Source: Malacoraja senta (lineage: Eukaryota). Taken from it: a DNA stretch of 64,000 bases. Below, one piece after another: positions 3,428 through 57,000 of the stretch. The position numbers and the translations under genes are program-made. The stretch lies in NCBI GenBank assembly GCA_038087875.1, contig CM075996.1:3474001-3538000 (forward strand), written 5' to 3'. Position 1 is the stretch's first letter, and each line of letters begins with the position of its first letter. The notes beneath the pieces are model-generated. The model made no database searches. It was not told where the DNA came from and saw only the letters and a program-made list of their open reading frames with translations.

Positions 3428-3524
3428 AGGTAGACACAAAAAGCTGGAGTAACTCAGCGGGACAGGCAGCATCTCTGGAGAGAAGGAATGGATGACGTTT
3501 CGGGTCGAGACCCTTCTTCAGACT
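3428..3524 (-). mobile_element. Penelope-like terminal repeat with hammerhead motif
   Basis: Minus strand reads AGTCTGAAGAAGGGTCTCGACCCGAAACGTCATCCATTCCTTCTCTCCAGAGATGCTGCC; the same repeat follows the GIY-YIG remnant at 42505-42619. Confidence 0.8.
3490..3524 (-). ncRNA. Minimal type I hammerhead ribozyme motif, core intact
   Basis: CUGAAGA + extra A + stem II GGGU-CUCG-ACCC + GAAA + C/G palindromic stem III + GUC triplet; stem I is weak. Confidence 0.6.
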
Positions 3525-3566
3525 GCATGGCAGGCAGGTTAACATTGTCTCATTTCTTTCTAGTCG

Positions 3567-4402
3567 AAGGTTCAAAGGTCCATTTATTTTCACATACACC
3601 AATTGGTGTAGTGAAATTAGAGTTGCCATTGCAGCACACTAATAAGAATGCAACACAACATTAAAGAAGAATTTAACATTAAACATAAAAACATCCCCCC
3701 ACAATGGTTCCCACTGTGAGGGAAGGCACAAAGTCCAGTCCTCTTCCTCTTGTTCGCCCATAGTCGGGCCCATTGAGGCCTCCGCAGTTGCCGCTACGGC
3801 GGCCCGATGTTTCAGGCCCTCTCGCCAGATGATAGTGCTCCGGCGTCGGGAGAACCCTCTCAGCGGCTTGGAATACCTGGAACGGCCGCTTCCTTACCGG
3901 AGACCGCGGCTCCCGAAGCCAACAGGCCGTGCTGGTCGATCTCGGCGAGAGATCTCAGGCTCTGCGGTGTTTAAACTCAGCACCGCCGCCCGCAGCTGGC
4001 CGCTCCACAGACCCCGCAGCTCCGTGGTGTATCAATCGGCGGACTCAGCATTCCGGAGCTCCAGCACGGCGACCCGGGCAAGGCATCGCCCGCTCCGCGA
4101 TGGCGCTCCAGTGCTGTGCTGCCGCCGAAGCCGAGGTTCTGGCCGGTCCCGACAGGAAACGCCACTCCAGTCCCGATGGTAGGCCGCGAGGACGGGGTGA
4201 AGATGCGGCTCGGAGAAAAGCCGCCTCTCCGACCAGGTAGGGACTGAGAAATGCAGTTTCCCCCTTACCCCACCCCACCCTTCATATAAAAAAGATGAGA
4301 CCTCCAAACAAAACTTTTTACATGCTAAAAATTACAAAAAGGAGTGAAAGGACGGACAGCTGCAGGCAGGGCAGCCATACCCAACTGGATGGCACCCCCA
4401 CC
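3567..4402 (-). mobile_element. GC-rich non-autonomous retroelement (~830 bp), copy 1
   Basis: Collinear with 9589-10423 and 11737-12563. The minus-strand 3' end has a TTTCACT(G/A)CACCAATTGGTG...AATAAA tail with a short tandem repeat. No credible ORF. Confidence 0.75.
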
Positions 4403-4614
4403 TTAGAATGTGAGTCTTTGTATCACAGAAGAATAGAGAAGAAAGAGGAGGCTTTGTCCCAAGGAAGAACTGGCATTTTTCTCTTATTTGGATTTTACTG
4501 ATTTGCAGGTTTATTTGCTCTGCAGCCCACATGGCTGTAAAACATTGTCATACAGAGCGCGGGAGCGAGGAAAGAGAATTAAAAATGTGTGCAAGATGAA
4601 TAGTGTCTGTATAG

Positions 4615-4962
4615 TTGTGTTGGAAGAAACTGCAGTTGCTGGCTTACACCAAAGATAGACACAAAATGCTGGAGTAACTCAGCGGGACAGGCAGCATCTC
4701 TGGAGAATGGGTGACATTTCGGGTTGAGACAAAATGGACGTTCAGTCACTCTACATCCCCATCCCCCACCGGGAATGCCTTAAAGCCTTCCATTTTTTCC
4801 TCGACTGCAGAACCAGCGAATTTCCCTCTATCAACACTCTCCTCCGCTTCAACCACTTCTCCCACTTCAGGAGTCTGAAGAAGGGTCTTGACCCGAAACG
4901 TTACCCATCCTCTCCAGAGATGCTGCCTATCCCGCTGAGTTACTCCGGCTTTTTGTGTCTAT
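4615..4962 (+). mobile_element. Internally deleted Penelope-like element: inverted terminal repeat, RT fragment, hammerhead terminal repeat
   Basis: 4734-4850 encodes MDVQSLYIPIPHRECLKAFHFFLD, resembling the Penelope RT motif DVxSLYTxIP. It is flanked by a minus-strand repeat (4615-4730) and a plus-strand repeat (4871-4962) with CTGAAGAAGGGTCTTGACCCGAAACGTT. Confidence 0.8.
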
Positions 4963-6908
4963 AATCACTATCTGTATAGTTGATGTGGCGCTTTTATTTA
5001 ATTGCAGTCTGCTGCAAAGATTGCTGTGGTCTCTGTATGCGGCAAGGTGGGGTCAAGTGGTCTGGCAGAGAATGGTTAACATAGATAGGTGGTGATGTAA
5101 TGTCTGCTGGGATTGGCCAGTGCACCATCAGCCCTCCTATTGACGGAAGCTCACCAGCTGCACCTCCAGTGGAGCAAACTAGTTGATTCCTAATTTGGTG
5201 ATTTAATCGCCACGATGAAAGGAGTCTCTAATGTTGTGATGATGATTATAGTGCAAGATCCAGGGCCCTCGTGCGCATTTTAATTAATCACAGTTTTTAT
5301 TTTTAACCCAGCAAATAGCAGGTTTCATAACCCAGTTGCTCACCAGAAAATCCTGCTATTTTTCTTGCCCCTGTAAATAGCTTTTGAATTAATCAATTCT
5401 GGTTGAAGCCTCAGGCAGACACAAAGGCTGAACTTGTATTTCCATATTGCCTCACAAAGTCTCGAGTGTTTCAAAGCAGATTTGAAACAGTTGCCTCCTT
5501 TGTTGTGAGACACAGGGAACTGCAGACGCTGGTTTATGACTGTATTCACATATAGTCGTTCCGCTGACTGGATAGCACACACCAAAATGCTTTTCACTGT
5601 ACCTCACGACATGTGACAATAAACCAAACTAAAGTACACTAAACAAAACAAAACCTTGATTAGCTGGAATAACTCAATAGGTCAGGCAGCATCTCTGGAA
5701 GACATGGATAAGTGATGTTTCTGGCCAGGGCCCTTATTCAGACTGAAGTTGGGAGGCAACACAGGCAATGTTTTGATTTTTTTAAACGCAGTTCGCGAAT
5801 GGCGTGGGACCACATTTTTGTGCAGATTTCCGGACACCCATACCGCTGAGTTGCCGACGTCGTTTGAGAATTGCACACTAAGTTACTCCAGCACTTGGTG
5901 TGTTTTTATGTAAAACAGCATCTGCAGTTCCAAGTTTCTACAATGTTTTGACCAGCAAAGCCTTAAATCAGCAAATGGGTTAAAAACCTTTGTAGACATA
6001 AGGTACAAGATGCTGGAATCTTGAACATACTGTACTGGAGAAACTTTGTGGGTCAGATAGCGTCTGTGGAGGGAATGTCTACTTCAAAAATTTGTAAAGA
6101 ACAATGGGCCATTCATTGTTCTGATTTGACTCAAATTTCCTCCACTCCTCTGCTTTTTACATTACCTTAATTCTCTATTCCTTGATTCTGATGTGCGTTT
6201 TTACAGCATCTATGCATTGCGTCGTAGCCAGCATTTACTAGTCATCCCTAACGGCCTTTCCGAAGGTGGTCATCTTGAACCAATGCAATCCTTCTGGTGA
6301 AGATGCTTCCAGAGTGCCGATGTGGAGAGGTTCCATAATTTAGACCCAGCGACGATGAGGAAATCAATTCACGATGATGTGTAACTTGTAGGAGAAACTG
6401 CAGGTTGTGGCATTCCCATACACTAATCTTGTAATAGCTAATCCAATAGCTACCGTCTCTAGTGTCTCTATTCTGTGTTTGGTTTTAAGGAAGAGTGCAC
6501 AGCACAATGTGAGCCTGGACCACAGGCTGCCAGGTTCAGTTCCTGGTTGGTTTGGCTTCCGTCAGCTGAGGAGGAAGCAGTGACCACCATCAGCTTCAAC
6601 AGCCTATGGGAGAGATGGAAAATCATCAAGCAGGTCAATGCTCGTACTTCTGATCCAATATCAAAACTATTGGAAATCTGAAATAAAAACGGAAAATGCT
6701 CAATAGGTCAGGCAGCATCAGTGGAGAAAGAGAGAAACAGTGTATCAGCCACAATGTTAGTCACAATTTCCGGCATTTGCTGTTTTTTAATTTCGTAATT
6801 CTGATCGTTTTCCAGTGTGAGGTCATCAACCACTTGTTCAAATGTTGGGATAAACCATACCAGGCATTCATGCGGTCATCACACAAATGCCCTGATTGAT
6901 TTCAAATC

Positions 6909-8661
6909 CAGGGCCGGCCTTAAGCCGATTGGACCGATTTCTCCCAATTGGGCCCCGCGCCTAAGGGGGGCCCCATGTTAATTTTCCGTATTTCGTACGG
7001 TAATACAAATTCGCTTTGTTAAATAAAGATTTTTAAAAAACATTCGCCATACGGATTTTTTTACAAAACAAAAATGGATAACAACCGCTGCACGGCCATT
7101 AGACAGAAATGATTTGTTATCTACTAGTGTAGCACTTGTCAACAGCCAGTAGTTAACAAGTAGTTATACAATGTGTCATATATGCATCGATCCACATTCC
7201 TCAGGAAATGTAATTGTGTTTCGAACAAGTATTAATGACGCTTCGTTCCTTTGAATACAATTCACGCGGCGTCATTAATACTTGTTCAAAACACAATTAC
7301 ACTTACTGAGGAATGGAGATCGATGCATTGATGACACATTGAGAATTTCTTAAAACTCACCATCTGATTGAGGGCTCCTTCTTGGTGAGCTTCTTGGTGT
7401 GCAGGTTAGTCATTCAATTTACCTACCGACCCACGTTATGTCTCTCTGTCTTTCGCTCTCTCCCTCCCTCTCTCGTGCGCTCTCTCTCTCTCCCCGCTCC
7501 CCATCTCGTCCCTCTCCAGCTCTCTCGGCATTCCCGGAATCATTGACGTTTTGCGGTAGACAAAAATGCTGGAGAAACTCAGTGGGTGAGGCAGCATCTA
7601 TGGATCGAAGGAAATACGCAACATTTCGGGTCGAAACCCTTCTTCAGACCCGGCCCGAAACGTTGGCTATTTCCTTCGCTCCATAGATGCTGCCTCACCC
7701 GCTGAGTTTCTCCAGCATTTTTGTCTACCTTCGATTTTCCAGCATCTGCAGTTCCTTCTTCGACGTTTTGCGGTGACGGCTGCATCTGCGGTTCCTTTCT
7801 GTGTTGTGGGGGGGGGGGGGGGGGGAGGGCAGGAGCATTGAGAAGGAGGCGGTCGGGGATCATGCCAGTGTCCAGCTCAAGAGCGGGTCAGCGGGCGATG
7901 GATAACAGGACAGCGGGCGGTGGAGCTTACTCCATATGTCAGGGCGAGTAACCTCAATTGATCCCTTGTTCGCGCTGCCAAGCTCCACCGCCCGTTGTGA
8001 TGTTATCCATCACCCGCTGACCCACTCCCCTCTATGATCTGCTCTTGAGCTGGTCCCTCACTGTTCAGACGGAGAGCACTGCCAGAGATGAGCGGGCCAG
8101 CAGAAGGCACTGAGATGGCAGTCGGTTCCACTGTCCGGTGATGGCGGCTGCTCGTAGCCACCCGAGCTGCTTCCCTTCCCGGCCACAATGCGGTGGCTCC
8201 GCGCCTGGAGCGCCGCGGCAGCGGTGAGTGGGTACTGACATGAACCCGACCCCCTCCTCAACGCTCCCACCCTCCCCGCAACTTTACCCCTGGCTAGACT
8301 CCCCACACGCTGTGAAAGGAACTCTCCCCCCAATTGGTCCCTTGATAAGTTGAACTAGTATTGTCATTCAATAAGATGACAACTGATTCAACTTGTCCCG
8401 GTGTGCTCCCGTTTTTCCCACCATCTTTCCACCTGCTGTCACCCTCCACCCCCCACCCATTCAGTAATTCAGAAAGAAGGAGACTTGGAAGCCGTGGGAA
8501 AATTGAATTGTTACTTTATTTTTATTTTTACGCGGTTTAAGATTTTTTTAAAGCCGACTGACTCATATTACTCACAACACGTGACTCATTTATAATTATT
8601 TATTTATATTTCTATGAAAATTGTTCCCAATTGGGCCCCGTTCCTCCTAAGGCCGGCCCTG
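6909..8661. mobile_element. Non-autonomous TIR DNA transposon (hAT-like termini)
   Basis: TIRs CAGGGCCGGCCTTAAG / CCTAAGGCCGGCCCTG; subterminal CCCAATTGGGCCCCG at both ends; no transposase ORF; no 8-bp TSD visible. Confidence 0.7.
7555..7760. mobile_element. Inverted pair of Penelope-like terminal repeats nested in the TIR element
   Basis: GTAGACAAAAATGCTGGAGAAACTCAG...CCCTTCTTCAGAC followed by CCCGAAACGTTG...CTGAGTTTCTCCAGCATTTTTGTCTAC. Confidence 0.75.
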
Positions 8662-9588
8662 GGTGGATCGTAGATGAAAACTTTAATTGAAACTCTGGCT
8701 GCCTTGGCAATTGACTTTGCAACTCAATCTTCCTCCTTGTCTAACGATACCTGACATGGTGAAGAGAGCTTGTGAGCTTGGCTGTTCTCTGTGTGTGCTG
8801 CATATATTTGTTCCTAAATTGTAGCAGAGAGAACATTCTTGAAGAAGGATCTTGACCCGAAACATCGTCTGTCCATATCCATCCGCAGATACTGCATGAT
8901 GTGCTGAGTTCCTCCAGCAGCTTTTTTTTCAAGAAGATTTTAAAAGATTTTCTTCGAGTGTTAAGCCCTCTGGGGGTCATGGTGAAAAGGAACTATTAAA
9001 TGTATGCCTTCATTTTCCTATATCTTTTTTTTAAGAAACCTAAATCCCCGTATTCCCAAAAGTCTAAATGTCTCTGTTTTTAAATTTTCAATTATTCTTC
9101 ATCATTGGGAATTTTTCAGGGAGAGAATTCCAAAGTTCCATCATCATTTGTGGGTTGAATTGGTACTTGAGATCAACATAGTTCCTTTACATCATACAAG
9201 GAATTGGAGATGCTGGAATATTGAGCAAAAAATATGAAGTCCTGGAGTAACTCAGCAGGGCAGGCAACATCTCTGGAGGATATGGATAGGCAACGTTTTG
9301 GGTAAGGAGACTTCTTTTACAGTCTGACCCACTGGATTCCTTCAGCACTTTGTTGTTTTGCTCATGGTTCTTCTACTGTGCAATTGTTAACAGTTTATTA
9401 TTTTACTTAAGACTTTAGAGATACGACGTGGAAACAGGCCCTTCAGCTCACCGAGTCCATGCGGACCAGCAATCACCCCGTGCACACTAGAACAAATGTA
9501 CCTAATCCTTTGCTAGAGAGATCAGACCTCTGTATCCCTCCTACAAGGCTAGCGGGATCTGTAATCCTCGTCTTTCTGACACAGAAAT

Positions 9589-10423
9589 CAAAGGACAAAG
9601 GACATCTATTGTTACACACACCAATTGGTGCAGTGAAATTTGAGTTACCATGCAGCACACAAATAAGATAAACACAACACTATAGAATTTAACATTAAAC
9701 ATAAAAAACACACCCCCCCACAGCGGGATCAATGTTTCCCACTGTGAGGGAAGGCAACAAAGTTCAGTCCTCTTCCTCATTGTTCACCCGTGGTCGGGGC
9801 CTATTAAGGCCTCCGCAGTCGCCGCCACGGTGGCCCGATATTTCAGGCCCTCTCCGTAATGATGGAACTCTGGCATCGGAAGAACACTCTCAGCGGCTTG
9901 GAGTTCCGAAACGGCCGCTTCCTGCCGGAGACCGCGGCTCCTGAAGTCCACAGGCCACGCTGGGCTGAGCTCCAACATTGGCAACCTCGGCAAAAGATCC
10001 CAGGCTCCACGATGATAAAGTCAGCGCCGCCGCGGCTGGAAGCTCCGCAGACCACAGCTCCACGATGTTGAAGTCGGCTCCGGAGCTCCAACACGGCGAC
10101 CCGGGTAAGGCATCGCTCGCTCCGCGATGGTACCTCAGTGCTGCGCCGCCGCTAAAGCTCGAAGCTCTGGCCGAACTCCGACATGAAAGGCCGCGCCAAT
10201 CCAAATAGTAGGCCGCAAGAAGGGGCCGAAGTTACGGCTCAGAGGAAGGACGCATCCTCGACCAGGTAGGGACCGGAAAATACAGTTCCCCCTTCCCCCC
10301 CCTACATAAAAAGACTAAAAGGCAAAACTAAAAAACAAAACTTTTCGACAACATTTTAAAAAGGGTGAAGGACGAACAGCTGCAGGCGAGGCTGCTACAC
10401 TTGATGGCGCCACCACTCGGACT
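9589..10423 (-). mobile_element. GC-rich non-autonomous retroelement, copy 2
   Basis: Collinear with copies 1 and 3; minus-strand 5' end GAGTCCGAGTGGTGGCGCCATC; tandem GTCCTTT tail. Confidence 0.8.
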
Positions 10424-11494
10424 CATCAATCCAAGAGCATGAGGAAAAGGCCTCAGGAAAAGACCCCTCTCTCTGTAAAACCTACTCCACACTAGTGATA
10501 GTCAGAGCATCATAGCATGGCCCTTCATCCACCCACGTTATTTGTTCACCAGTGATGGGAAAAGAAATCAAAACACCTAAGTTAATAAAGGTATTAAAAC
10601 TCTCCTCTAACCTCCACAGGCATTGAACCCAGTCCACACTCGCACTGATCACTGAGCCAAGTCTCTGTTCCACAGTTTTTCCACTCATTACATAAACATC
10701 ACACACCATCAAAGAAAAACAAGGACACAAACAGTTTGTTCTTTAAAGTGTTTCTGATGAGAAGCCACTGAAAGTGAAATCATGACCCCTTGACTGGTTC
10801 AGCTCTGGTAGTTGGGGAATAATGCTCTGAATAGATCCAATTAGATGAAGAATGACTAGATTTAAGTTTTGCATCAAGAACAAAGGCTTGTTAATTTGAC
10901 AGTGAAGTGAACACAGTGTCCAGGGACTGGAACACCTGAAGTAATAAAGGAAAGCATCAGCCATGGGAAAACCTTTGGCATTTGAAGAGCTGCCCATTGG
11001 AGAATGAGTAAGTTCCCAGTAAGAGAGGTCCTTTAAAGCTCTTCCATCACTCTGTGCAGGGTTATCTACACTCTGATGTGTGTGTGTGGGTGGGGGGAGG
11101 GGGAGGGGGGGGAGGTAATTAAATAGATATATAGACAAATAGCACGAGGATTTGATTCAATTGTCTTTTCAGTTTTGTGCTAATTAAGGCTGGGACCTGG
11201 ATTGATTGTCTTTCCATTGACTGGATAGCATGCCACAAAAGTATTTCACTGTACCTCTGTACATGTGACAATAAGGTAAACTGGATATTTTGCATTATTT
11301 GATATTGAGTATGGACAAAATCTGAGAGAGACTGAAATGGTTGATGCTGAGAGTTGTTTTCTCTTATCTGGAACCATGAGATATATTTTTTAGATAAATA
11401 ATTGGCAAATTGGAAATGAGATGAGACATTTCTTAATGAAGAGGATGATAAACGTTTGAACATTCTTTATCTGCGGGGAAAAAAATAAAAAAAT

Positions 11495-11566
11495 TGTTTG
11501 GCACGGACTTGAAGGGCCGAGATGGCCTGTTTCCGTGCTATAATGGTTATATGGTTATATGGTTAT
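11495..11566 (+). mobile_element. CR1 3' tip with (TATATGGT)n tail
   Basis: Nearly identical to 24838-24908. Confidence 0.7.
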
Positions 11567-11736
11567 CTCAGATGCTCTGCATCCTCATTCACCGAGTATG
11601 ATCAAAGATATTTGGAAGCAGAGGATTTGTGGACCAAACAGGAAAATAGACAAAGGACAGGATCAGACAAGATAATTCACTGTGGTACAGACCCAAGTGA
11701 GTTTTGACCACCTTATACCCGTATGATTATTGCTTG

Positions 11737-12563
11737 CAAAGGACAAAGGAAATTTATTGTCATGTACACCAATTGGTGCAGTGAAATTTGAGTTACCATG
11801 CAGCACACAAATGAGATAAACACAACACTATAGAATTTTACATAAGACATCCCCCACTGCGGAATCAACGTTTCCCACTGTGAGGGAAGGCAATAAAAGT
11901 TCAGTCCTCTTCCTCATGTTCACCCGTGGTCGGGGCCTATTTGAGGCCTCCGCAGTCGCCGCTACGGATGGTCCGATGTTTCAGGCCCTCTCGCCGGATG
12001 ATGGTACTACGGCGTCGGAAGAACACTCTCAGCAGCTTGGAGTTTCCGAATCGGCCGCTTCCTACCGAAGACCACGGCTCCCGAAGTCCACAGGCCGAGC
12101 TGGGCAGAGCTCCAACATTGGCGACCTCGGCGAAAGATCCCAGGCCTCCGCGATGTCAAAGTCAGCGGCGCCCGCGGCTGGAGGCTCCGCAGACCACAGC
12201 TCCACGGTGTTGAAGTCGGCAGTCTCACTACTCCGGAGCTTCAACACGGCGACCTCGGTAAGGCATCGGCCGCTCCGCGATGGTACCTCAGTGCTGCGCC
12301 GCCGCTGAAGCTCTGGCTGGTCTCCGGCAGGAAAGGCTGCGCCAATCCAGATGGTAGGCCGCGAGGAGGGGGCGAAGATGCGGCTCAGAGGAAAGACGCA
12401 TCCTCGACCCAGGTAGCGACTGTGAACCCCCCCCCCCCCCCACCACATAAAAAGACTAAAAGACCTCCACAACAAAACTTTTGACGGACTAAAAATTAAA
12501 AAAAGGATGAAAGAACAGCTGCAGGCGAGGCTGCCACACTCGATGGCGCCACCACTCGGACTC
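11737..12563 (-). mobile_element. GC-rich non-autonomous retroelement, copy 3
   Basis: Highly similar to copy 2 along its length, with the same termini. Confidence 0.8.
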
Positions 12564-12934
12564 TCTGTTAACACATTCTGTTAAAATGCATTCTTATAGT
12601 TATAAATGCAGTTAAATAGTTAAATAGATAAGGGAGCAGAATTTGCTGAGGTACATAATTTGATATAAGGATATGATTATCGACACGTATTAAAAAAAAT
12701 TCCTAAGTCTCAACAATTAGAACATTTCATTGAGACCTCAAGTAAGTAGTTAATTCCCGTGTAAATAAAACACAACGGTGTGTGCAGGAAATCTAAAATA
12801 AAAACAGAAAATGTGGAAATACTCAGCAAGTTAGGCTGCATCTTTGGGAAGAGAAACAAGGTTACGTTTCAGGTCGAATACTCTTTGACAGAAGTGCCTC
12901 ATAATTTACAAAGAGCCTGTGGATCACTTGATTT

Positions 12935-13241
12935 GAATCACTTCCCTCTGGAAGGCGGCTCCGGACTGTCAAAGCTGCCACAGCCAGACATAAAAACAGT
13001 TTTTATCCACGAGTAGTTGATCTACTCAACAGCCAAAAATCTGTAGCCTCCCTTTGATCTGGTATTTTGTTGGTTCACATGCTTGATTAATCGTGTTTTA
13101 TCATTAATGTCTTATTATTATTAATGTTTAGTGTTTTCTGAGTTATTCGTAACTGTCACTGCATGTCATGTTACTTGTGGGTGGAGCACCAAGGCAAATA
13201 CCTTGTATGTGAATACTTGGCCAATAAACTTACTTACTTAC
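12935..13241 (+). mobile_element. Rex1/Babar LINE 3' fragment
   Basis: Matches 32200-32490 (CACTTCCCTCTGGAAGG...GGAGCACCAAGGCAAAT...GGCCAATAAACTTA); tail (CTTA)n. Confidence 0.75.
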
Positions 13242-14009
13242 TGGATTTGGAGAGTATCAGACCTTGTAAATGGATTATCAACAAAATTAATAAAGAGGTG
13301 AAAAAAAGAAATCTGGCAAGAATGACAAAGCTGTGAGAGCTTCCACAAGCATGTAAAAAAGCAGATGTTCACAACATGTTGGCTGGTGTGGGGAAGTTGG
13401 GCCGAAGGGCCTGTTTCCACACTGTATCACTCTATGACTCTATGAAAGCAAACTTAATGGAGCTTGAGGGGCTAGAGAGATAGCACATCGACATTGACAG
13501 GGGAAATTTAATAAGGGATGAGGAAATCCAACACCAAATATTTTGCATATGACATAAATAAATGACCAGGAATTGTGGAGTGCTGCAAATTAGTATCCAA
13601 TAAGTAAAATAATCAGCGTTGTCAATAATACTAAATAAAAAGGATTGGAAAAAAATAATGAGACTAGATAGATAGAAACTTTATTTGCTACACGACCAGG
13701 GTTGGTGGTAATTGGGTTCGGTACATGATGGTACACTGCTTTAGCACATTAACACTAATAACAACACAGATCATAATAATAAAGCACATCACAAATCACA
13801 AATCTCACCAACAATACATAGTGCAAAAGAACAGACAAAAACCATAGACAAGACACTGTATACATCAAAGTCAAAAAGTTATTGGAGGGAATTAAGTGTT
13901 CTTATTGCTGAGGGGAAGAAACTGTTTTTAAAACGGGTGGATTTTGTAGCAAAACTGATAAACCCTCTGTACCTCAGTGTCTAGTCTGTTTCTTTAAAAG
14001 AGTTGGCTC

Positions 14010-14640
14010 CAGAGAAATTGAATTTAATATTATCAACCTGAGCTAGTTCCTTATAGTTTGGAACTGTCCAGTGGATTGGAAGATGGAAAATATCGTAATG
14101 TTATCCAAGAATGGAGATAAAGCAGGAGAGTAATTTATTACAGGGCTGTCAGATATTGTGAAAATATTATAATCCATAATAAAGGAATTTGTAACAGGGC
14201 GCTTAGAAAATTTAATGAGAAGGTGGAGTTGGTATGTTTACGAATTTTAATGGCGTGTTGATGAAATAACTAGTAGATAAGCGGTAACCTGTGAAAACAG
14301 CACATCTGAATAGTCAAAATGCAAAGATAATGTGCTACACAATAGGTTTATTATTCAAAGAGCTCATGGAGAGGGAAGTGGTGAATTTGCATGGATAGTG
14401 GATTGGTTAAAGGATAAAAGGCAGTGAATAGAAATAAACAGCTCATTGTCTGGTTGACAAACTATTACCATCAGAATGGTACAGGGCCAGTGCCGGCTTT
14501 CTGCTCCATTACAATTCACAATATAGATGAAGGGACTGGCTGCAGTGTCTCCAACATTTGCTGATGAGACGATAGTTGGAAATATGCGCTGTGAGGATAC
14601 AAAAACATTCCAAAGGGGCACAGATAGAGCCGTCCATTTC
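14010..14640 (+). pseudogene. Old, heavily degraded CR1 RT fragment
   Basis: Frame-broken remnants resembling GTVPVDWK.(A)N, WIVDWLKDKRQ and FADETIVG; many indels and stops. Confidence 0.55.
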
Positions 14641-45486: not shown

Positions 45487-45849
45487 GAGATTTTTTATTA
45501 CGAATTATATTTAGCTCCATTCTTTATTCACACTCTCTCTTTGGCTCTCCTATTTCCTTTTTTTTCCCCCTCTGAATTCTCAGTAATCAATTTGGTGCTC
45601 TGCTGTGTTATCATCCTGACATCAGTCAAACGGTTATTTATTTTTCTGCTCTATTTTCTTCTTTCTCTTTAGTCATCCAGCGACTTCTGACTTTAATTGC
45701 CCTATTTTCCTCCCCCTGAAGAATGTATCTAGATTCATCTGAATATCTCCTCCTTAAAGATCTTTAAGGTGGAGATATTCAGGTGAATATCTGTTCAATA
45801 TATATACATATTGAACAGATAGTGAAGTGAATAGGATACAGAACAATTG

Positions 45850-46215
45850 CAGTCTGGAGATGGGTCTCGAACAGAATCATTACCTTTCTATTTCCTCCAT
45901 AGATGCTGCCTGACCTACTAAGTTCCTCCAGCATTTTACGTTTTGTTATCAGTCTGAAAAAGGGTCCCGATCCTAAACATCGCATGTCCATTCCCTCCAT
46001 AGATGCTTCCTGACCCACTGAGTTCCTCCAGCACTTTGTGTTTTGATCAAGGTTCCAGCATCTGAAGTTTCTTGTGTCTTCAATGAAAGTCTTTGATTCT
46101 AATTCACCCAGGTCAAACCTTTGACATGAAATATTAACACTTTCCACATATGCTGCCTGATTAGTTGTTTGTTTCCAGCATTTTCTATTTTTATTTCAGG
46201 TTTCCAGCACCTGCT
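45850..46215 (+). mobile_element. Three tandem degenerate Penelope-like terminal repeats
   Basis: Repeated ...TCCATAGATGCT(G/T)CCTGACC...AGTTCCTCCAGCA units; mutated hammerhead cores at ~45852 and ~45952. Confidence 0.65.
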
Positions 46216-46383
46216 GTTTGTGGATCTTCAATTCCTGTTGAATTCTCTGCCACTTGTCTTCCTGGAAGTTCTTCTCTCCAGTAGATTCTGTTTCCCTTCT
46301 TCTTTATGATGAGGTATTGATTCCCATCTTAATCCTGATGCAGGTTTTCAATCTGAAACATCAACAATTCCTTTCCCCCTCAC

Positions 46384-46660
46384 AGCACGACACTGGTAGA
46401 GTTGCTGCCTTACAGCGCCAGAGACCCGGGTTCGATCCTGATTACGGGTGCTGTCTGTATGGAGTTTGCACGTTCTCCACGTGACCTGCGTGAGTTTTCT
46501 CCGGGAGCTCTGGTTTCCTCCCACATTCCAAAGACAAACAGATTTATAAGTTAATTGGCTTTGGTAAAATTATAAATTGTCCCTAGTAGGTAGGATAGTG
46601 TTAATGTGTGCGGGGATCGCTAGTCGGCGCGGACTCGGTGGGCCTGTTTCTGTACTGTAT
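46384..46660 (+). mobile_element. tRNA-derived SINE (HE1/V-SINE-like)
   Basis: GGTAGAGTTGCTGCCTTACAGCGCCAGAGACCCGGGTTCGATCC (box B) and central TTTCCTCCCACATTCCAAAGAC. Confidence 0.8.
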
Positions 46661-48098
46661 TAAATTCAATATTCTTCTTTTCATGTCCATCTTGTTACAA
46701 ATGTTGACCTCGCTGTCATCGTCCGTCCTGAAAAGGACGCAAGCTTCCGGTGACAATCAGTGGAAGCCATCACTTGTCGCAATAGATGATGGTGGTAGCA
46801 GAATTAGCTCAGGATACTTCCAGTTTCCAGCCCCGCGACGTGGACGCTTCTGCTATGGGGCCATTAAATTAAATTAAAGATACTGAGTTTATTTGTCGCA
46901 CCCAAGTCAATCTGGCGTTTCAGTCCAAACCTCCAGCCCCTATCCTCCTTGCGACATAAAACCAACTTGTTCCCTCACTTTCCCAGTCTGATGCTGAGGA
47001 ACATCTGAGAGAGAAACTCAATTATCCCCCATTCAGCTGACTGTAATTCCTGAATTTTCTGATTTATTTTTCCTGTGCAAAACACCTTCGCTTTACCCCA
47101 CTGCACAACAACCTCCCAAGCCTGTATTTAATTGAGAAGCACGCACTCCGTGACAAATCCCTCTATCCCGCTAGATCAAAGAAGCTAGCTCCAGGAAGTG
47201 TTTGGAGCTGGGAGCCAGTGGTCAGAAGCCCAAGGAAGTTACACAGTCACATTCTGCAAAGGTAGCCAAGGTGAGTCCTTCAATCAGCATTCAAGAAACC
47301 TTATGAGGGGTATTAGGACACTGAGCCCGGGGCCGATGCTGTGAGGTGAATCACGAGGCTCCATGGGGGTGCAAGGACATGAAATAAATGAGGGTGATGG
47401 TTAAAACAAAAAGGCAACACACTCCTCCCTTCTTCTCAGCAGCAGCAGGTCTGAAAATGTCTCTTTTGCGAGCAACATGCAGAAAAATGAAATTGTGAGG
47501 AAATAGTGCAACGTAGGTTGCCAGTAGCAACCAAAGCTGCCCACCCACAGATCTCATTCTCTCCCTCCTCTCCCTTGTACAGTTCTTTGGTATTCTTCCA
47601 TGCGATGTGTAAAGGAACACATTCAGAGGTCGTGGAGAACAGGGGGTGACTCATCTGCACCCTGCTTGCTTTTGCTGTCAAGATGCATTGCCCTCAGGAA
47701 GAGACAAAGCGAGCCCGTGCCCACCATCTCTGGCCAGTGTAACAGTGCAGCCATGTCGCTCTGGAGAGAAGCCGAGAGCTGGTGCTGGGATTGCCTTGGA
47801 CAATATTTATCTGCCCCGCCAGGTCATCATCAGGTTATACGTCGTGGGCTCTTTCCATGCACAAATTGGCTGCTGCATTTCCCAACATAAAAGCGAAACT
47901 CTTCTGAAAAATATAGAGCGTAGAACAAAACAGCAAAGGAACAGGCCCTTCGGCCCACATTTTCTGTGTCGAACATGATGACAAGTGAATCCCCTCTGCC
48001 TGTCCCTCCATTACCTGCATATTCATGTGCCTATGTAAAAGCCTCTTATACGCCACTATCATATCTGCTTCCACTACCAACCCCTTGGCAGCACATTT

Positions 48099-48391
48099 AC
48101 AAGATACAAGATACATTTATTTGTCACATGTGCCAGTTGGCACAGTGAAATGTATGATCACCATACAGCCATACAATAAAAATAAAGAACACAACACACG
48201 ATAGAGTTCAACATAAAACATCCCCACACAGCAGAATCAAAAGTTTCCCACTGTGAGGGAAGGCACCAAAGACAGTTATCTTCCTCTGATGTTCACCCGT
48301 GGTTGGGGCCTCCGGAGCCCTCCGCAGTCGCGCTACGGGCAGCCCGCTGTTCAGGCCTGCTCGCCGGGATGTTGGAACTCCGGCGTCGGGC
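48099..48391 (-). mobile_element. 5'-truncated copy of the GC-rich element, nested in a CR1 3' end
   Basis: TTTCCCACTGTGAGGGAAGGCA...GTTCACCCGTGGT as in copies 1-3; minus-strand tail (TATCTTG)n. Confidence 0.72.
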
Positions 48392-49809
48392 ACCCTCCAC
48401 TCTCTGTGTAAAAATACTGTATATCTTATTCAGTGATCATGACGTGTCAAGGCTGATCGACCTAAAGATGCCTACCTTATATCGTATATTTCTATCCTTC
48501 AACCCTTTTGCCATTATTCTATGCTCTCCTACACACTGTTCTGGGATAAAAAAATGTAGTAAGCGAAGTTGGGGAAGGTCAGTACCTCCACAGCTGGAAT
48601 CAAGGTGAACAATCCTATATTTTCCGCACCTTCTCATGACAAAGAAGGAGGCCATTTGGTCCATTGGGTCGATGCTAGCCCTCAGAGCAGCTGCTCATAT
48701 TCCTCCACTTATTTCTCCTCATCCTGCCACAAGCTCATTGAATCTGTGCTAAATCTCCTGCTATTCACTCACACAACTTGGAGCTAATTAACCCACCCAT
48801 TCTTGGATTGCAGGATGAAACCTGAAAGTCCCAAGAGGTGGGGTGGGGGGGGGGGGGGGTGGGACCTATGGGGTCACAAGGAGAACGTGCAAACTCCACA
48901 CAAACAGCGCTGGAGGCCAGGATTGAACCTGAGTCTCTGGACCTGAGGGGCATGATCTGTCATACGACTGTTCTACCCAATTGATCTGTGTAGAAAGAAT
49001 GTGCAGATGCTGGTTTATACTGAAGATGGACACCAAAGTGCTGGAGTAACTCAATGGGTCAGGCAGCATCTCTGGAGGAAAAGGATCCAGAGATTCTTCC
49101 TGACCAACTGAGTTACTCCAGCACTTTGTGTCCAACTTCAGGAGACCAACCCTTTTTCTCCAGAGTTGCTGCCAGACCCACTGAGTTACTGCAGCACTTT
49201 GTGTCTATCTCACCTTGATCTGCGATGCCTTCCGTGTCGACTGAACATGGTGCTGTCCAATAGAGTGAGTGGCCTCAAGAGGAGAGGGACAATTGCACTG
49301 AGAGTGTTGTGTTCTCTTTTATGCAGTCAAGAAGCCACCAACATCAACCAGCCTCATGGTACCATGCTCAATAGAAGAGGTACATTCAGTCCATTAAACC
49401 TATCTGAATGCAGGTGAAGACGGAATTGCACATCCGTCAACCTCTGAGATCGCCCTTGTGAGGGGCCCAGGGGTCTCTCACTCTCACGAACGTCTTCCCA
49501 CTTGTCGGAAGCTCGACTCCCTCAGGCCGGCTTCCAGATGATTGCGTGGCTGCAGGTTACTCTGATAATTGCCAGCCAAGAACGCACTGCTCTCACTGTG
49601 TGTGTCAGTGACATAGACATCAGTGAGATGACCCACTTTTGTCAAGTATTGCTATGGATACGGGGAAATTATTGTCATCAGATGTTTCCTCTGCTGTAGG
49701 GAAGGATTTTAAACTGCGCCGGCAGTTAATTGTGCAAGAGGCCATGATGTTAGGCCTTACGTACCCTACAAGTGTCACGAAGGGCTTTAGCACCAAAGGT
49801 CCATCAGGA

Positions 49810-50100
49810 GGTGCAGTCACTTTATAGTGTAGGGAACCCAGCTGCCAATTTGTACATGGTAAGCCCCCACGGTCAGCGACGATGATCGGGAAGAAAAAAT
49901 ATTGGGCAATAATGAGGAGTGCATCCCTCTTGCTTTTTGTCCAAGTTGTACCATGGGATGGTTTACTCTACCTGACAGGGCAGGTGGTTGGAGGGTTAAA
50001 GTATCGTGCTGCATCTGAAAGACAGTGACTCTGACTGTGCAACACCTCTGCACTACTGCTCTGGGAACCTTCATTGAGAATTTGCAGTCAGGTCTCGGAC
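49810..50100 (-). mobile_element. Ancient DeuSINE-like remnant
   Basis: Minus strand ...TGCACAGTCAGAGTCACTGTCTTTCAGATG...ATCCCATGGTAC...CCAATATTT...CAAATTGGCAGC resembles the Deu domain as recalled; a similar piece lies at ~47790-47910 (+). Confidence 0.5.
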
Positions 50101-50763
50101 ATTTGAGTGAAGGGAAGAGATTGATGAACCGACCATGGACAGCTCCTACCTCTAACCCAGCATCTACCCACTCCTACCCTGGCCCTGGCATCTACCCTGA
50201 ACTTTCTGACGCCTTTCCCCACAGTGGAAAATTTTGATTCTATTGTGGGGGGATGTTCATGTTGAATTCTATAATGTGTTGTGTCATTTTTCTTTTTTTT
50301 TTAAATTTTCAATGGATGTACGGTAACTTAATTATTTATTCTATGTAAAGCACTTTGGTTTCAACGCGCGTTGATTTGAACGTATTATATAAATAAAATT
50401 TACTTACTTACTTACCCTATCCTCAGCTCTAACATGCTGCCTAACAATGACTGCAACCCAGCTCGGACTCTAATCCTAGCTTAGTTTAGTTTAGTTTAGA
50501 GATGCAGTGCGGAAATAGGACCTTCAGCCCACCGAGTCCGCGCCGACCAGCGATTCCCTCACACATTCCTCTCACATCCTAGCCCTATATCTCTCCATTA
50601 GGCCAAGCAGACACAATATTAACAGACTACATTCTCCCCTCTCCACGAGACACTATATCATTGGTACAAGGTTCAGCTGGTGTTGGAAACATTGGGGACC
50701 CAGTCTACTGAAGGACTGAGAGAATGGCTGGCTTTGGGATCAGTAGCAGCAGGCTTGGGTATA

Positions 50764-51125
50764 ATAGACAATAGACAATAGGTGGAGGAGTAGGCTATTT
50801 GGCCCTTTCGAGCCAGCACCACCATTCAATGTGATCGTGGCTGATCATCCCCAATCAGTACCCCGTTCCTGCCTTCTCCCCATATCCCCTGACACCACTA
50901 TTTTTAAGCCCTATCTAGCTCTCTCTTGAAAGCATCCAGAGAACCTGCCTCCACCGCCCTCTGAGGCAGAGAATTCCACAGACTCACCACTCTCTGTGAG
51001 AAAAAGTGTTTCCTCGTCTCCGTTCTAAATGGCTTACCCCTTATTCTTAAACTGTGGTCCCTGGTTCTGGACTCCCCCAACATCGGGAACATGTTTGCTG
51101 CCTCTAGCGTGTCCAAACCCTTAAC
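50764..51125 (-). mobile_element. CR1 3' fragment with (TATTGTC)n tail
   Basis: VKGLDTLEAANMFPMLGESRTR...FFSQRVVSLWNSLPQ. Confidence 0.88.
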
Positions 51126-51354
51126 CCAGATATTTTCTCTTTGCAACTCGGGCACTGAGTCCAGTTGAGGAACCGTTCTGTGGTGAAGATGAACAAGAGC
51201 GTCAGATTGGACCTGCCTCTCACCAGGCCTGCTGGGGACAGTGATTAGCCAACAGAGCCAAGGGAAAGAATCCGCGTGAACCACTTGCACCCTCAGTCCA
51301 GTTCTCTGGATGCACCGAGCAAAAGAGCTAGAAGTAACACACAGGTTGAGTAAA

Positions 51355-51725
51355 CCATCCCCACTCCCCTCTCTACCCTCCATGTGCCCCACCTGGACTC
51401 CCATCTATTTTTCCCCTCCACCCTCTCACCTCCCCCTGCTACTTTCCTCCCTCTGTTTTAACAACTCACAATTTTTCCAACCCATCTCACACCTTCTGTT
51501 CTCATCTTAGCCTTTGTTCCAACCATCTGCCTATCAAAACAAAACCCTTGCCTATTTTGATCTCTTACCTGCCACGCTTTCTCCTGCCTCTGTCTTTTTC
51601 CAGCTTTCTTCTCTTCTCCCCTGCAATCAGTCTGAAGAAGGGTCTTGACCTGAAACATGACCTATCCACGTTCTCCAGAGATGCTGCTTGACCTGCAGAG
51701 TTACTCCAGCGCTTTGCGTCCTTTT
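51355..51725 (+). mobile_element. Penelope-like 3' UTR and terminal repeat
   Basis: Pyrimidine-rich UTR then AGTCTGAAGAAGGGTCTTGACCTGAAACATGACC...CTCCAGAGATGCTGC. Confidence 0.65.
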
Positions 51726-51937
51726 GACCTACCTTACGCCGTTCCCTCCTACCTCTGAGAGGTGGCCACAACATTGATCCGCTCTGGCAGGCTGTGAAGG
51801 TAAATTAATAATCGAGCTAAAGAAGCAGAGCTATGAAATTGTAACAGTTGGCATTATATTTATTCCCTCACTTAGAACGTTACCGAGCGGTGTCACTGAA
51901 ACCGTTCTATGTCTCGTAGTATCCATGGTTGATGCTT

Positions 51938-52137
51938 NNNNNNNNNNNNNNNNNNNNNNNNNNNNNNNNNNNNNNNNNNNNNNNNNNNNNNNNNNNNNNN
52001 NNNNNNNNNNNNNNNNNNNNNNNNNNNNNNNNNNNNNNNNNNNNNNNNNNNNNNNNNNNNNNNNNNNNNNNNNNNNNNNNNNNNNNNNNNNNNNNNNNNN
52101 NNNNNNNNNNNNNNNNNNNNNNNNNNNNNNNNNNNNN
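51938..52137. other. Assembly gap (200 N)
   Basis: Run of 200 N; the round number suggests a placeholder size. Confidence 0.99.
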
Positions 52138-52752
52138 TGGACAGTATTTACCAGCTCCACTTGATAAGATCACAGACTATTCTAAATGCACTGCACTTTG
52201 TTGGCTGTGAAGGGTGTTGTGACATCCTGTGGTTCTAATAGGTGTTATATAATCGCAAGTTCTTTCTTTCTTGCTTTATGTATGGTAATGCCATGCAGCT
52301 GGAAGCATGTTCCCAAAGATTTAAAATCCATAATTGCCAAAGGTAAACTCAGAAAATAATTCACCCCCAACTATCTCAAATCAAGGCATCTTTCTTGTAA
52401 AATGTAACAAAAAGAATTCAAACCAACGAGAGGCTTTTCAGAATGCAAAAGGAATCCTGAGTAATGCTCAGGTGATTGTTTTTGTTCAGCATTGTTCGAC
52501 TTTAAGGAAAAAAATTAAACTAATGACTGCTGGCGATGTGGTTGTAGGTGCTGGGTAGGGGCTGCGAGACAGACAGGGTGATGGAGTTGAATTAACATGC
52601 ACAGCTGATGCTGAATCATCGCCGATCTTGTGACTGTATTTTGGTGAATGATGTTGCAGCTCCATAACAGACTGACTCAGTGACTCCCAGCCACCAATGA
52701 GAGAACATCGACATGCCATTGGAACCACAATTGATGCTTTGAAATCCAATAA

Positions 52753-53040
52753 ATAGACAATAGAGAATAGGTGCAGGAGTAGGCCATTTGGCCCTTTGAG
52801 CCAGCACCGCCATTCAATGTGATCATGGCTGATCATCCCCAATCAGTACCCCGTTCCTGCCTTCTCCCCATATCCCCTGACTCCGCTATTTTTAAGAGCC
52901 CTATCTAGCTCTCTCTTGAAAGCGTCCAGAGAACCTGCCTCCACTGCCCTCTGAGGCAGAGAATTCCACACTCACCACTCTCTGTGAGAAAAAGTGTTTC
53001 CTCGTCTCCGCTCTAAATGGCTTACTCCTTATTCTTATTC
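52753..53040 (-). mobile_element. CR1 3' fragment
   Basis: Near-identical to 33161-33445. Confidence 0.85.
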
Positions 53041-53859
53041 TCCTGATAATCCAGCCACGGAATGGCTCTCCCCTTTTTCCCCTGACTCTCAGTATGACGA
53101 ATGGTCTCGACACGAAATGTCACCTATTACGTTTCTCCAGAGATGCCGTCTGACCCGCTGAATTACTCCAGCCGTTCGTGTCTATCTTCGGTTTAAACCA
53201 TATCTTCGGTTTAAACCTTTCTACACATATGGATTCTGATGGATTCCAATATTCCCAGCTATTTAGACTGTACAGAACTGCCCTCGAGTGTGTGGTTCAC
53301 GAACGACTGGTGAGCCATGTCAGAACTCACCAGAATTGAGACTGCACAACCCGCCATTGTCGTTACCGACGGGCCACCACCACAGCACAAAAATGTCCAT
53401 TTAACATGTTTATTCCTCATCAGCAGATCCCACACCTTTCAGCTCTTTCCGTCACCTCATGCTGGTATCTCCACCCTTTCTCTCTCATTTTAGTCTGGGG
53501 GAAATTAGGGATGAACAATAAATGCTAGCAATGCCAATGACTCAAGCTGGATCTCCCACTTCTAGCCTGCTAGTCGTTCCCTCAAAATCTAGTTGTTCCC
53601 TCAAAATCTATATCAGATTTGTCAAAGATGATTTGGTTTTCAACCATTTTGATTCTGCCCAAACACAGCATAATTTTCTGCTTCAATGCCTTTCCGACAA
53701 GGTTTCTATTGCTCATTTGTATTCCTTTCTTGAACAGCAGTATTTGTTTACTGTCTTCCCACCCCCACAATGATGCCTGAATCTTGCTAATTTTGGAAGC
53801 CACTAATGCAGCAGCCCTGCAGTTGCCTTTAGAATGCTAGAATGCAGACTGCTAGGTTC

Positions 53860-54062
53860 AAGGGATACAAAATGCTGGAGTAACTCGGTGGGTCAGGCAG
53901 CATCTCTGGAGAGCATGACCCGACCCCAAGATGGATGAAGAAGGGTCCCAACCCGAAACGTCACCTATTCATGTTCTTCAGAGGTGCTGCCTGACCTTGC
54001 TGAGTTAATCCAGCACTCTGTCCCTTTCTTTGTAAACCAGCAACTGCAGTTTCTTGTGTCTC
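53860..54062. mobile_element. Inverted pair of Penelope-like terminal repeats
   Basis: ATGCTGGAGTAACTCGGTGGGTCAGGCAGCATC ... TGAAGAAGGGTCCCAACCCGAAACGTCACC... Confidence 0.72.
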
Positions 54063-54824
54063 CGTTGAAAGGATTGTTTGACTTCTAATCACCTTGATTA
54101 CTCCAGTACTTTCTCTTTACTAATTTGAATATTATTGATTTAATTTCCTCATACTCCCCCCCCACTTCCCACAACTTCTGCTCTGCTTATTACATCATCT
54201 GTTGTGAAGATAGATTCAAGATATTTGTTCAATGATCCAACTATTTCCTTATTTTCTTATGCCCAAGGGACCACATATTCCAACTTCTCCCACCATCAGT
54301 CTTTTGTTCCTACTATGCATGTTTTCAAATCTCTTTCAGTCCTCAGCATACAATTTTATTTTAGCAGGATTGTAACATTTTTATTATTTATCACTGTGCT
54401 TCGTTTCTTGGCTATGAATAGAAATACTTTCCAGGAAGTTTTTATTTCTCATTGGAATGTCTCTAATTGTTGAGTATTGAGAAATATTTCCTTAAATGTT
54501 TAACACTGCTTATCTGGCAAATCTTTCAATCTTATTTCTCAATCTACTTTATCCAGCAGCTCATTCCCCCATATCTACTGAATTGATTGTACCAAGCAGC
54601 TGGTAGAGCTGTTTCCTCATAGCTCCAGTGTCCAGGGTTCAATCCTGATTACTGATTGTGCTATCTGGGTGGAGTTCGCATGTCCTCCCCATGGCTGCAT
54701 GGGTTTCCTCAAGATGTTCAGGTTGCCTCTCACATCCAAAGATGTGTTGGTTGCAAGGTTAATTGGCCACTTTGAATTGCCCCCAGTGGTATAACCTGGT
54801 GGGAATTGATGGTGGTAAGGTCTA

Positions 54825-55133
54825 CAGTTCTCCCTCTCTCTCTGTCCCTCCCCCACCCTAGTTCTCTGACTAGTTTTACTGTTCTCCTGATTAATTTTAC
54901 TGATTGTGTGCCTCTTTGTCACCTTCCCCGCAGCGAACAATGAACCATTCTACATTTCCTTATCATCGTCTGCTTTGATCGGTCGTTTTCACACCCTAAC
55001 CCTCCATATTTCTAGACTGCCTCTCCCCTGACTCTCAGTCTGAGGAAGGGTCTCGACCCGAATCGTCACCCATTCCTTCTCTCCAGAGATGCTGCCTGTC
55101 CCGCTGAGTTACTCCATCATTTTGTGTCTATCG
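54825..55133 (+). mobile_element. Penelope-like 3' UTR and terminal repeat, inserted in a SINE (54595-54820 and ~55135-55200)
   Basis: UTR then AGTCTGAGGAAGGGTCTCGACCCGAATCGTCACCC... Confidence 0.7.
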
Positions 55134-55486
55134 ACATGGAAAGACCCAGGAAATAGAACTGATGGATTACCTTTACAAAAACCTGGCATGGATATAATGG
55201 GAATGCCAGTTTAGTAAAAGTAATCTCCCCAGACAGCATTAGAGGTCAGGATTGAACCCAGGTCACTGGGTTACTCTATGAGGCAGCAGATCCTCCAGCC
55301 GTTTAATACAACCAATTACTTAGATGTGGGGGATAAACTGGCTAAAGTAGGTAGAGAAATTAGATTACAAGACTTGTCAGATAAGCAATGCAAAACATTA
55401 AAAACAAATGTTTCTTAATACTCAACAATTGGACATTCCAATGAGAAATAAAAATGGGAATGTGATTTCTTCCAGTGTGCCAGTGT

Positions 55487-55675
55487 TAGAAATATAGAAA
55501 CATAGAAAATAGGTGCAGGAGGAGGCCATTCGGCCCTTCGAGCCAGCACCGCCATTCATTGTGATCATGGCTGATCGTCCCCAATCAATAACCCGTGCCT
55601 GCCTTCTCCCCGTATCCCTTGATTCCACTAGCCCCTAGAGCTCTATCTAACTCTCTCTTAAATCCATCCAGTGAT
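55487..55675 (-). mobile_element. CR1 3' end with (TATGTTTC)n tail
   Basis: ATAGAAACATAGAAAATAGGTGCAGGAGGAGGCCATTCGGCCCTTCGAG. Confidence 0.8.
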
Positions 55676-56869
55676 ATAGAATGTTGAAGGAGTCTGTTCT
55701 ACGATTCTCCTTAGAAAAACCCGACCACCTCAAACCTCCAAATATTGAAGGCACCATGGATGGGCGGAATAAATGGTCATCTGTGCTCATAATGAACCAT
55801 CTGAATAATTGTCCAAGAGTTTGTCGTTGTCCTCACCTGAGATCTTTTTGGAAAAGAGAGCAGGGAGGTATTCAGCAGTGGTGTAGGGGAGAAGGTGTCT
55901 GAACATGTGGAGGATTATATGCATGCATATATATACCGGTATATATGCATTGATTTGTAGCTGCGTTTAAATCAGAGAAAGCACAGAGATGGAGAGTGCA
56001 TAACAGAGAGCCAGATGAAACTGGGCATCACAGGAGAAAACTGAATGTTCTCAGGTGAAAGATATGAGTGTATGTGTGGAGGTATGTGACTGTGTCAGCA
56101 GTGATAACCCACTCACTGAGACCTCCTTCCATCAGATGAAAGACTCGGGTCAATCTAGTTGACCTTCTCCTTTCTGGTTACTGCATGATACAATTATAAT
56201 GGAGTTATTGACATCACAGCAATCAGTCTCTATGAATTAATTCACAAGCTCCCAGACAGGAGGCACGAACTCCCTGGTGGTGGACAGAAGTCAGAGCCAT
56301 TGGTTCCTCCTTAGTATGTCACACTTAGAATCCCACAAATTACTTGGCATGCCGAGATGTTATCTCCTGGAAGAAATGTGTCAAATTTGCACTTGATTGA
56401 ATCGTTTCATATCATCCGTTTGTTAACCCCACCTTGTTTTTCAGAGATATCTGATCTGCACTATTTTTGCTTGTGAGACAATGTCTGCGTTACACTGATT
56501 AGATATGACTAGTCCAGGGCTCTTTGTCCAGATATGCCTCTCCCAGCTTTTGAAAATCTAAGCACACTTCTTTTCTTCTGTCCACAGAATAATGTTTACC
56601 TAGCACCTTGGAGCTTGTTAATTTACACTATTTTCAAATCATCCCAGGATTTTTTTCTCACTTTCTCTGTGGTGTCTTCCAGCGTAACAACTCTTCCATT
56701 TTCTATTCTTCTATTCTTCCATTTCTAACCTTTTGAGACTATTCCATGTTTTGTATCTAGACGATCACTAATGGTGGCCCCAAGCTCTGAAATTCACTCT
56801 CTTAATATCTACACCTCTTTACCTCTCTTTCTGCCTTTAAAACATTTATAACCAAATGTCCAACCAGCT

Positions 56870-57000
56870 CAGTCTGAAGAAGGGTTTTGGCCCGAAATGT
56901 TGCCTATTTCCTTCGCTCCATAGATGCTGCTGCACCCGCTGAGTTTCTCCAGCATTTTTGTGTACCTTTGATTTTCCAGCATCTGCAGTTCCTTCTTTAA
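56870..57000 (+). mobile_element. Penelope-like terminal repeat
   Basis: AGTCTGAAGAAGGGTTTTGGCCCGAAATGTTGCC...CAGCATCTGCAGTTCCTT. Confidence 0.72.

Follow-up and report, generated by a model that had tools for sequence, protein, structure and literature searches.

Minimal hammerhead ribozymes (min-HHRs) were defined by Cervera and de la Pena in 2014 as hammerheads without loop 3 (PMC4209133), and they consistently show a base between positions 9 and 10.1, a G10.1-C11.1 pair and a palindrome at 15.2-16.2. Coelacanth has ~4,000 such motifs and Xenopus ~9,000; min-HHR monomers did not cleave, and dimers cleaved at a low level (PMC4209133). For PAc, a Poseidon element of anole, reverse transcription initiates downstream of the hammerhead, cleavage requires protein, and RNA-seq ends are absent at the cut site (PMC11167929). 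An HDV-like ribozyme (of the hepatitis delta virus type) stands at the 5′ end of L1Tc/ingi long interspersed elements (LINEs) and of bipartite NARTc/RIME (PMC5786205, PMC13708176, PMC4035085), and the mammalian CPEB3 ribozyme has been given a proposed role in CPEB3 splicing and memory. Here we analyse a 64-kb stretch of Malacoraja senta DNA (contig CM075996.1, positions 3,474,001 to 3,538,000; hereafter the window), in which an earlier note had described a dense family of hammerhead-bearing repeats. By far the best explanation of what the window contains, and one we hold to be highly probable, is a set of fossil hammerheads in the pseudo-long terminal repeats (pLTRs) of a Penelope-like element (PLE) and, separate from these, a ribozyme-headed derivative of a Vingi/Ingi-like LINE.

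Judged by its sequence, the flagged repeat is the pLTR end of a Penelope-like retrotransposon, probably of Neptune type. A hidden Markov model (HMM) built from 7 pLTR copies gave 46 matches at E<1 in the window and none in the reversed window used as control; at E<1e-3 there were 40 matches (23 plus, 17 minus), 30 of which reach the hammerhead part. The hammerhead region aligned gaplessly over the whole motif in 20 copies, which bears out the earlier estimate of roughly 20, and a 28-nt hammerhead pattern found 13 matches with at most 3 mismatches, whereas 100 shuffles yielded 0. The invariant core (CUGANGA / GAAA / UH, 11 bases) is complete in 8 of the 30 copies and in the majority sequence. 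If all four stem II pairs, a base 17 that allows cleavage and an unchanged CG palindrome are asked for as well, only three copies are fully intact, and these are exactly the cores that the earlier note had named (3490-3524(-), 4871-4906(+) and 42284-42318(-)); the GUC cleavage site it had read in them holds for the two minus-strand motifs, but the 4871 copy has GUU. The features of the family are as follows.

42..56966, both strands: all 40 pLTR-family matches, mostly 5′-truncated or core-mutated.
3486..3525, minus strand: intact minimal hammerhead with GUC, 2-bp stem I, 4-bp stem II and ACGU palindrome, in a pLTR copy at ~3428-3528.
4731..4850, plus strand: Penelope-like reverse transcriptase (RT) fragment, DV.SLY motif region (HMM E 2.4e-7; tblastn 56% over 39 aa).
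4871..4910, plus strand: intact-core hammerhead with a GUU triplet, in a pLTR copy at 4869-4964.
42280..42319, minus strand: intact minimal hammerhead with GUC, in a pLTR copy at 42221-42322.
42319..42507, minus strand: pyrimidine-rich 3′ untranslated region and candidate pLTR intron, with GT after the last codon and AG one base before stem I.
42508..42624, minus strand: the last 39 codons of an open reading frame (ORF) for a Penelope-like GIY-YIG endonuclease (HMM match 42517-42621(-), E 3.2e-6).

The earlier reading of these repeats as Penelope termini with a minimal, dimer-type hammerhead is supported by ORF fragments, by their sense order and by insertion structures. A PLE protein HMM made from 53 full-length relatives with RT and GIY-YIG domains matches the window at two sites only, both in sense orientation and just upstream of intact hammerheads: the RT fragment directly precedes the 4871 hammerhead (by ~25 nt) in an internally deleted copy, and on the minus strand the distance from the ORF stop at 42508 to the hammerhead is ~190 nt. 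The closest homologues of the C-terminal piece carry an RT, a CX2-5CxxC linker and a GIY-YIG domain, and the linker recurs in 51 of 53 further homologues, the corresponding segment being missing from the window copies; a CX2-5CxxC linker between RT and endonuclease marks Neptune and Nematis (PMC8557442). Several other top protein matches of this piece (bacterial repeat proteins, chimeric gene models) were set aside as irrelevant. Pfam detected neither short PLE fragment, and a protein search with the 47-aa RT fragment gave no candidate. Among the 40 family matches, neighbours within 150 nt comprise 7 head-to-head, 2 tail-to-tail and 5 same-strand pairs; the copy at 4869-4964(+) faces, head to head, a truncated copy in inverted orientation (4653-4730(-)), and that at 42221-42322(-) stands in partial tandem with 42121-42187(-). 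Since published PLE insertion structures include partial tandems and inverted 5′-truncated copies (PMC8557442), these arrangements lend support to the PLE assignment.

In its anatomy the window family shares with metazoan PLE min-HHRs the type I core, the extra base, the G10.1-C11.1 pair, the loopless palindrome, the pLTR position and the many dispersed single copies. The base between 9 and 10.1 is A in 18 and T in 2 of the 20 gapless copies; the earlier note likened this extra A to that of some viroid hammerheads, but a base at this place is a conserved Penelope min-HHR trait (PMC4209133), and the A is the standard bulge of this hammerhead family. G10.1-C11.1 is present in 14 of the 20 copies. 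That stem II variants keep their pairing holds insofar as 70 of 80 cells pair, but the variants quoted for it differ in the loop or by wobble, and a two-sided change occurs in 1 of 80 cells only. Stem I consists of 2 bp (each of the two pairs in 16/20 copies, a third in 3/20), and the palindrome at 15.2-16.2 reads CG in 9/20 copies and CA or TG in 11/20, variants whose base changes are the signature of CpG decay. The Penelope element of D. virilis likewise has a 2-bp helix I and an intron end at the 5′ edge of the hammerhead, where the candidate acceptor lies here, but it differs in a 2-nt palindromic insertion and a 6-bp helix II (PMC4209133). In PAc the ORF begins at stem II (PMC11167929), whereas no frame of the window pLTR matches PLE N-termini; PAc is a Poseidon element, whereas the window element is Neptune-type by its homologues. 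The hammerhead family is absent from the 29 Rfam matches at E<=10 in the window. No shark or skate term occurs in the searched supplements of PMC4209133, and a 2026 preprint, in its accessible portion, reports hammerhead retrozymes in one chondrichthyan. The repeat adds one more host to the known association of Penelope and hammerhead, its copy number and extra base being of a kind already published. The copies at 7555-7730 and 56867-56966 form a pLTR subfamily of their own, in which the triplet is GUU and both stem I and stem II contain U.G wobbles.

How these hammerheads came to be so dense can be understood from known PLE biology: copying begins from the 3′ end, with reverse transcription starting downstream of the hammerhead, so that every insertion, even a truncated one, carries the motif. 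Where an element is active and in tandem, the hammerheads of its two pLTRs would base-pair by way of the ACGU palindrome, probably with assistance from the element's protein, and cutting after GUH would process the element RNA. The copies scattered over the genome are most likely neutral fossils, which would cut host transcripts rarely or never. Several observations weigh against this account. There is no full PLE ORF in the window, so that clade and copy number are indirect; stem I of 2 bp and stem II of 4 bp are short against the 4-5 and 7-8 bp of Schistosoma min-HHRs (PMC4209133); and cleavage is predicted from sequence only. In favour of the fossil reading are the CpG decay of the palindrome and minimum free energy (MFE) folding, which gave no hammerhead-like minimum for monomers or homodimers, in a nearest-neighbour model that ignores tertiary contacts. 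Conservation of the core relative to its flanks, on which the earlier note had its view depend, points the same way, core identity to the majority sequence (0.82) not exceeding that of the 3′ flank (0.77) by permutation (p=0.13); as it used old, partly 5′-truncated genomic copies rather than young subfamily consensuses, the comparison can neither show nor deny selection during transposition. Three of the 40 copies (34002-34070, 42121-42187 and 49144-49210) seemingly begin near the predicted hammerhead cut site, one of them being accounted for by microhomology.

Alternatively, the motif may be retained as a splice acceptor, a promoter or a protein-binding fold, cleavage having been lost even in active elements. 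A candidate AG acceptor lies one base 5′ of stem I in 12 of the 20 copies, with an extended run of pyrimidines ahead of it in 4 of 12 copies inspected, and hammerhead mutants of the anole element are not impaired in insertion in vitro (PMC11167929); the near lack of two-sided stem II changes points the same way. The donor and acceptor of the pLTR intron are candidates. The majority sequence, however, keeps all 11 core bases, G10.1-C11.1 and the palindrome, and the anole hammerhead does cleave with protein (PMC11167929), which makes loss of cleavage unlikely. The earlier note's proposal of a very large reservoir of self-cleaving sites in introns, read here as working sites at which neighbouring copies dimerise within one host pre-mRNA, is poorly supported and in our view very doubtful. 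In its favour, three of 20 motifs in 64 kb are intact, five same-strand neighbour pairs are available for dimerising and an ACGU duplex is weakly favourable (-1.7 kcal/mol). But in no member of these five pairs' set are both motifs intact, and 39 kb separate the two intact copies of the minus strand; the location in introns was not confirmed by a search of the window for host exons, which found none; stem I is 2 bp, and CpG decay has altered the palindrome of 11 of 20 copies; published min-HHR monomers are inactive and dimers slow (PMC4209133), and the anole element needs protein and yields no cleavage-site reads (PMC11167929).

The second ribozyme of the window is of another kind. Rfam family RF00622, the mammalian CPEB3 ribozyme, matches 46797-46874(-) with a score of 41.1 bits, above the family's gathering cut-off of 35, and is the only HDV-like Rfam family to match this stretch at E<=10. 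The ribozyme heads a short retroposon, which is arranged on the minus strand thus:

46863..46874, minus strand: target-site duplication, upstream copy, 12 nt with 1 mismatch.
46797..46862, minus strand: HDV-like ribozyme of the CPEB3 sequence type, with a 6-bp P1 (G1.U), 7-bp P2 and 3-bp P3.
46672..46862, minus strand: non-autonomous retroposon headed by the ribozyme, 191 bp, ending in an (AGA)n tail; a high-copy family.
46659..46670, minus strand: target-site duplication, downstream copy, 12 nt with 1 mismatch.

The ribozyme has a 2-bp P1.1 and a weak P4, with a predicted catalytic C in J4/2 at 46807 and a predicted cut 5′ of 46862; its P1 counts 6 bp from G1, or 7 bp from the flanking U. It shares with the mammalian ribozyme P2, P3, most of L3 and the position of J4/2, and differs from it in the 6-bp P1, in the 2-bp P1.1 and in heading a dispersed retroposon instead of occupying one intronic locus. 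MFE folding does not single out the window copy (z 0.66). That the element belongs to a dispersed high-copy family is apparent from a survey in which public contigs of three related species, and a small fourth run, were aligned to window positions 46650-47900: the three organisms gave 3612, 5026 and 4903 contigs and the fourth run 182, almost wholly on 46672-46863. The loose ends of these contigs cluster at 46862/46863, the predicted cut site, and at 46672, beyond which the flanks are unrelated (agreement ~0.36). In the window's own organism summed depth on the element is ~20,000 x that of the flank; depth is not a copy number, and the copy number of the family can be put at thousands and no more precisely. 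The window itself holds one copy only. A target-site duplication as good as the one framing it was found at 5 of 2977 random sites and at 0 of 57 AT-rich sites.

From the coincidence of contig ends with the predicted cut site we infer that the element is most likely released at its 5′ end from read-through transcripts by its HDV-type ribozyme. The element would be a non-autonomous, ribozyme-headed derivative of a Vingi/Ingi-like LINE, a short partner of the kind seen in NARTc/RIME and in internally deleted Vingi derivatives. An ORF-start remnant seen by eye in the element is not claimed, its internal frames having failed to match Vingi-like N-termini (best E 0.13); tblastn gave no ORF match.

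What an autonomous relative may look like was found in metagenome contigs, where a 20-nt ribozyme core pattern picked out 10 contigs (L001-L010). Eight of them, representing three sequence types, hold complete ribozyme folds; the remaining two (L009-L010) and two prokaryote-genome matches were attributed to chance, and scans of viral contigs gave no matches. All six metagenome loci scanned pass the RF00622 cut-off, at 55.6-66.5 bits. Two of the loci need to be told apart by position:

L008 6868-10029, minus strand: full-length APE-RT LINE, 3,162 bp, beginning at the ribozyme's first G; L001-L005 are grouped with it.
L007 8822-8900, plus strand: of all copies, the ribozyme most like the mammalian consensus (66.5 bits), with a 1-bp P1.1 and a long P4; found also in L006.

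The L008 element is framed by a 15-nt target duplication with one mismatch, its APE-RT ORF is degenerate and its tail is (ATC)n; L003-L005 hold a second insertion of the same LINE family, 92% alike over 639 nt. Its protein relatives (n=36) include ORFs of ~980 aa with APE and RT, and RNase H is absent in 5 of the 5 scanned. Vingi has been described as having a single ORF of ~980 aa without RNase H (PMC13708176). The ORFs found here fit that description. By this description the L008 family would be Vingi-like. A single APE+RT ORF, no RNase H, a length of ~3 kb and a duplication are all found in the L008 family, and this set of Vingi/Ingi traits is lacking in the 191-bp element. As in the published L1Tc/ingi and Vingi systems, L008 has its ribozyme at base 1 of an APE-RT LINE, the target duplications are of 12-15 nt, and the protein relatives include single ~980-aa ORFs without RNase H. 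No convincing local alignment was obtained between L008 and the 3′ part of the 191-bp element; with the loose-end consensus, no more than the 8 nt that precede the tail are shared.

Taken together, these copies incline us to the view that the mammalian CPEB3 ribozyme is probably the domesticated 5′ end of a Vingi/Ingi-like LINE, of a ribozyme lineage that still heads full-length LINEs in another eukaryote and a ~190-bp non-autonomous family, amplified to thousands of copies, in this fish lineage. The likeness is close: counted by eye on alignments, 36 of the initial 38 bases of the mammalian consensus are the same in L003 and 35 in L008, and L007, with distal P4 left aside, agrees at 52 of 55 positions (also by eye), two of its three changes forming one compensatory pair. 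Four aligned ribozyme copies have 96% of cells paired and 4 two-sided changes in P1, related sequences of low power, and on this alignment the nested double pseudoknot with P2, P3, P1.1 and a catalytic C in J4/2 is found; P2 (7/7 pairs) and P3 (3/3) are invariant in sequence and equal to the mammalian consensus. A 7-bp P1 starting with a G.U wobble is present in L003, L007 and L008, but not in the window copy. In L007 an amino-acid-transporter exon lies 7.6 kb upstream of the ribozyme on the same strand; its host is in our judgement not mammalian. Some points complicate this account: the 191-bp element has no ORF match, the P1 of the window copy is one pair short of the CPEB3 type, neither a LINE ORF nor a target duplication is found in the 6 kb around the L006/L007 ribozyme, and cleavage by these CPEB3-type ribozymes is predicted only.

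One could instead suppose that the likeness reflects convergence on a constrained HDV fold and not common descent, this fold being short and widespread in retroelements. We consider this improbable: RF00622 is the only one of the HDV-like families to match the window stretch at E<=10, P2 and P3 stay identical to the mammalian consensus while P1 varies with its 4 two-sided changes, and convergence would have had to arrive at the 52 of 55 consensus positions of L007. That the Rfam match is a true orthologue of the mammalian ribozyme, lying in a cartilaginous-fish CPEB3 intron, is extremely unlikely: the window copy does pass the RF00622 cut-off, and its flank at 46902-47825 is single-copy, non-coding and ~95% alike in two other organisms, in one of which a flank contig runs 29 nt into the element (below the 31-letter threshold) and hints at a shared old insertion, but thousands of contigs with unrelated flanks share the same 191 bases, an (AGA)n tail and target-site duplication frame them, and none of the CPEB exon motifs searched for was found in the window. 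The window ribozyme, from its predicted fold, resembles the CPEB3 ribozyme and would work like it, and we do not class it as an orthologue.

The mammalian conservation of the CPEB3 ribozyme is described, with no donor given in the accessible text, by Bendixsen 2021 (PMC8233481) and Chen 2024 (PMC10919898); the idea that transposons were domesticated into intronic ribozymes has been put forward in general terms, no donor family being named in the portion seen (PMC7761336); and Kojima 2018 lists six ribozyme-bearing LINE clades, Vingi not among them in the part available. The accessible portions of the relevant papers joining Vingi with a ribozyme do not mention CPEB3, and in the text consulted neither L1Tc/ingi, NARTc/RIME nor Vingi is connected with the CPEB3 sequence, nor is the origin of the CPEB3 ribozyme treated in those of PMC6765202, PMC7026644, PMC12415542, PMC4035085 and two 2026 preprints. 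No donor is named in the literature searched; Repbase, Dfam and patents lay outside that search, and the link may be known there. If a Vingi/Ingi-like donor is confirmed, a transposon family would have been named as the source of a human ribozyme that is among the few for which a role has been proposed, and CPEB3-type ribozymes would prove abundant outside mammals, with an identifiable donor family. The thousands of natural variants would supply covariation and activity data beyond mammalian alignments, and the result would bear on the 5′ untranslated region of Vingi elements, which are now used as gene-insertion tools (PMC13708176).

Other features of the window include a GC-rich long inverted repeat at 7883-8025 with arms of ~45 nt, possibly a miniature inverted-repeat transposable element (MITE), which has only sub-threshold plant miRNA matches, and tandem arrays of 31 nt at 26712-26959 and of 75 nt at 29737-30036. 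LINE RT fragments, of CR1/L2-type and other, lie at 23899-24804, 30013-30606, 33230-33808, 31199-32192 and 15648-16424, the family names being presumptive. A DIRS-type retrotransposon at 18774-23577(-) carries split inverted repeats and two open frames, one for an RT (654 aa) and one for a tyrosine recombinase (331 aa), and looks young.

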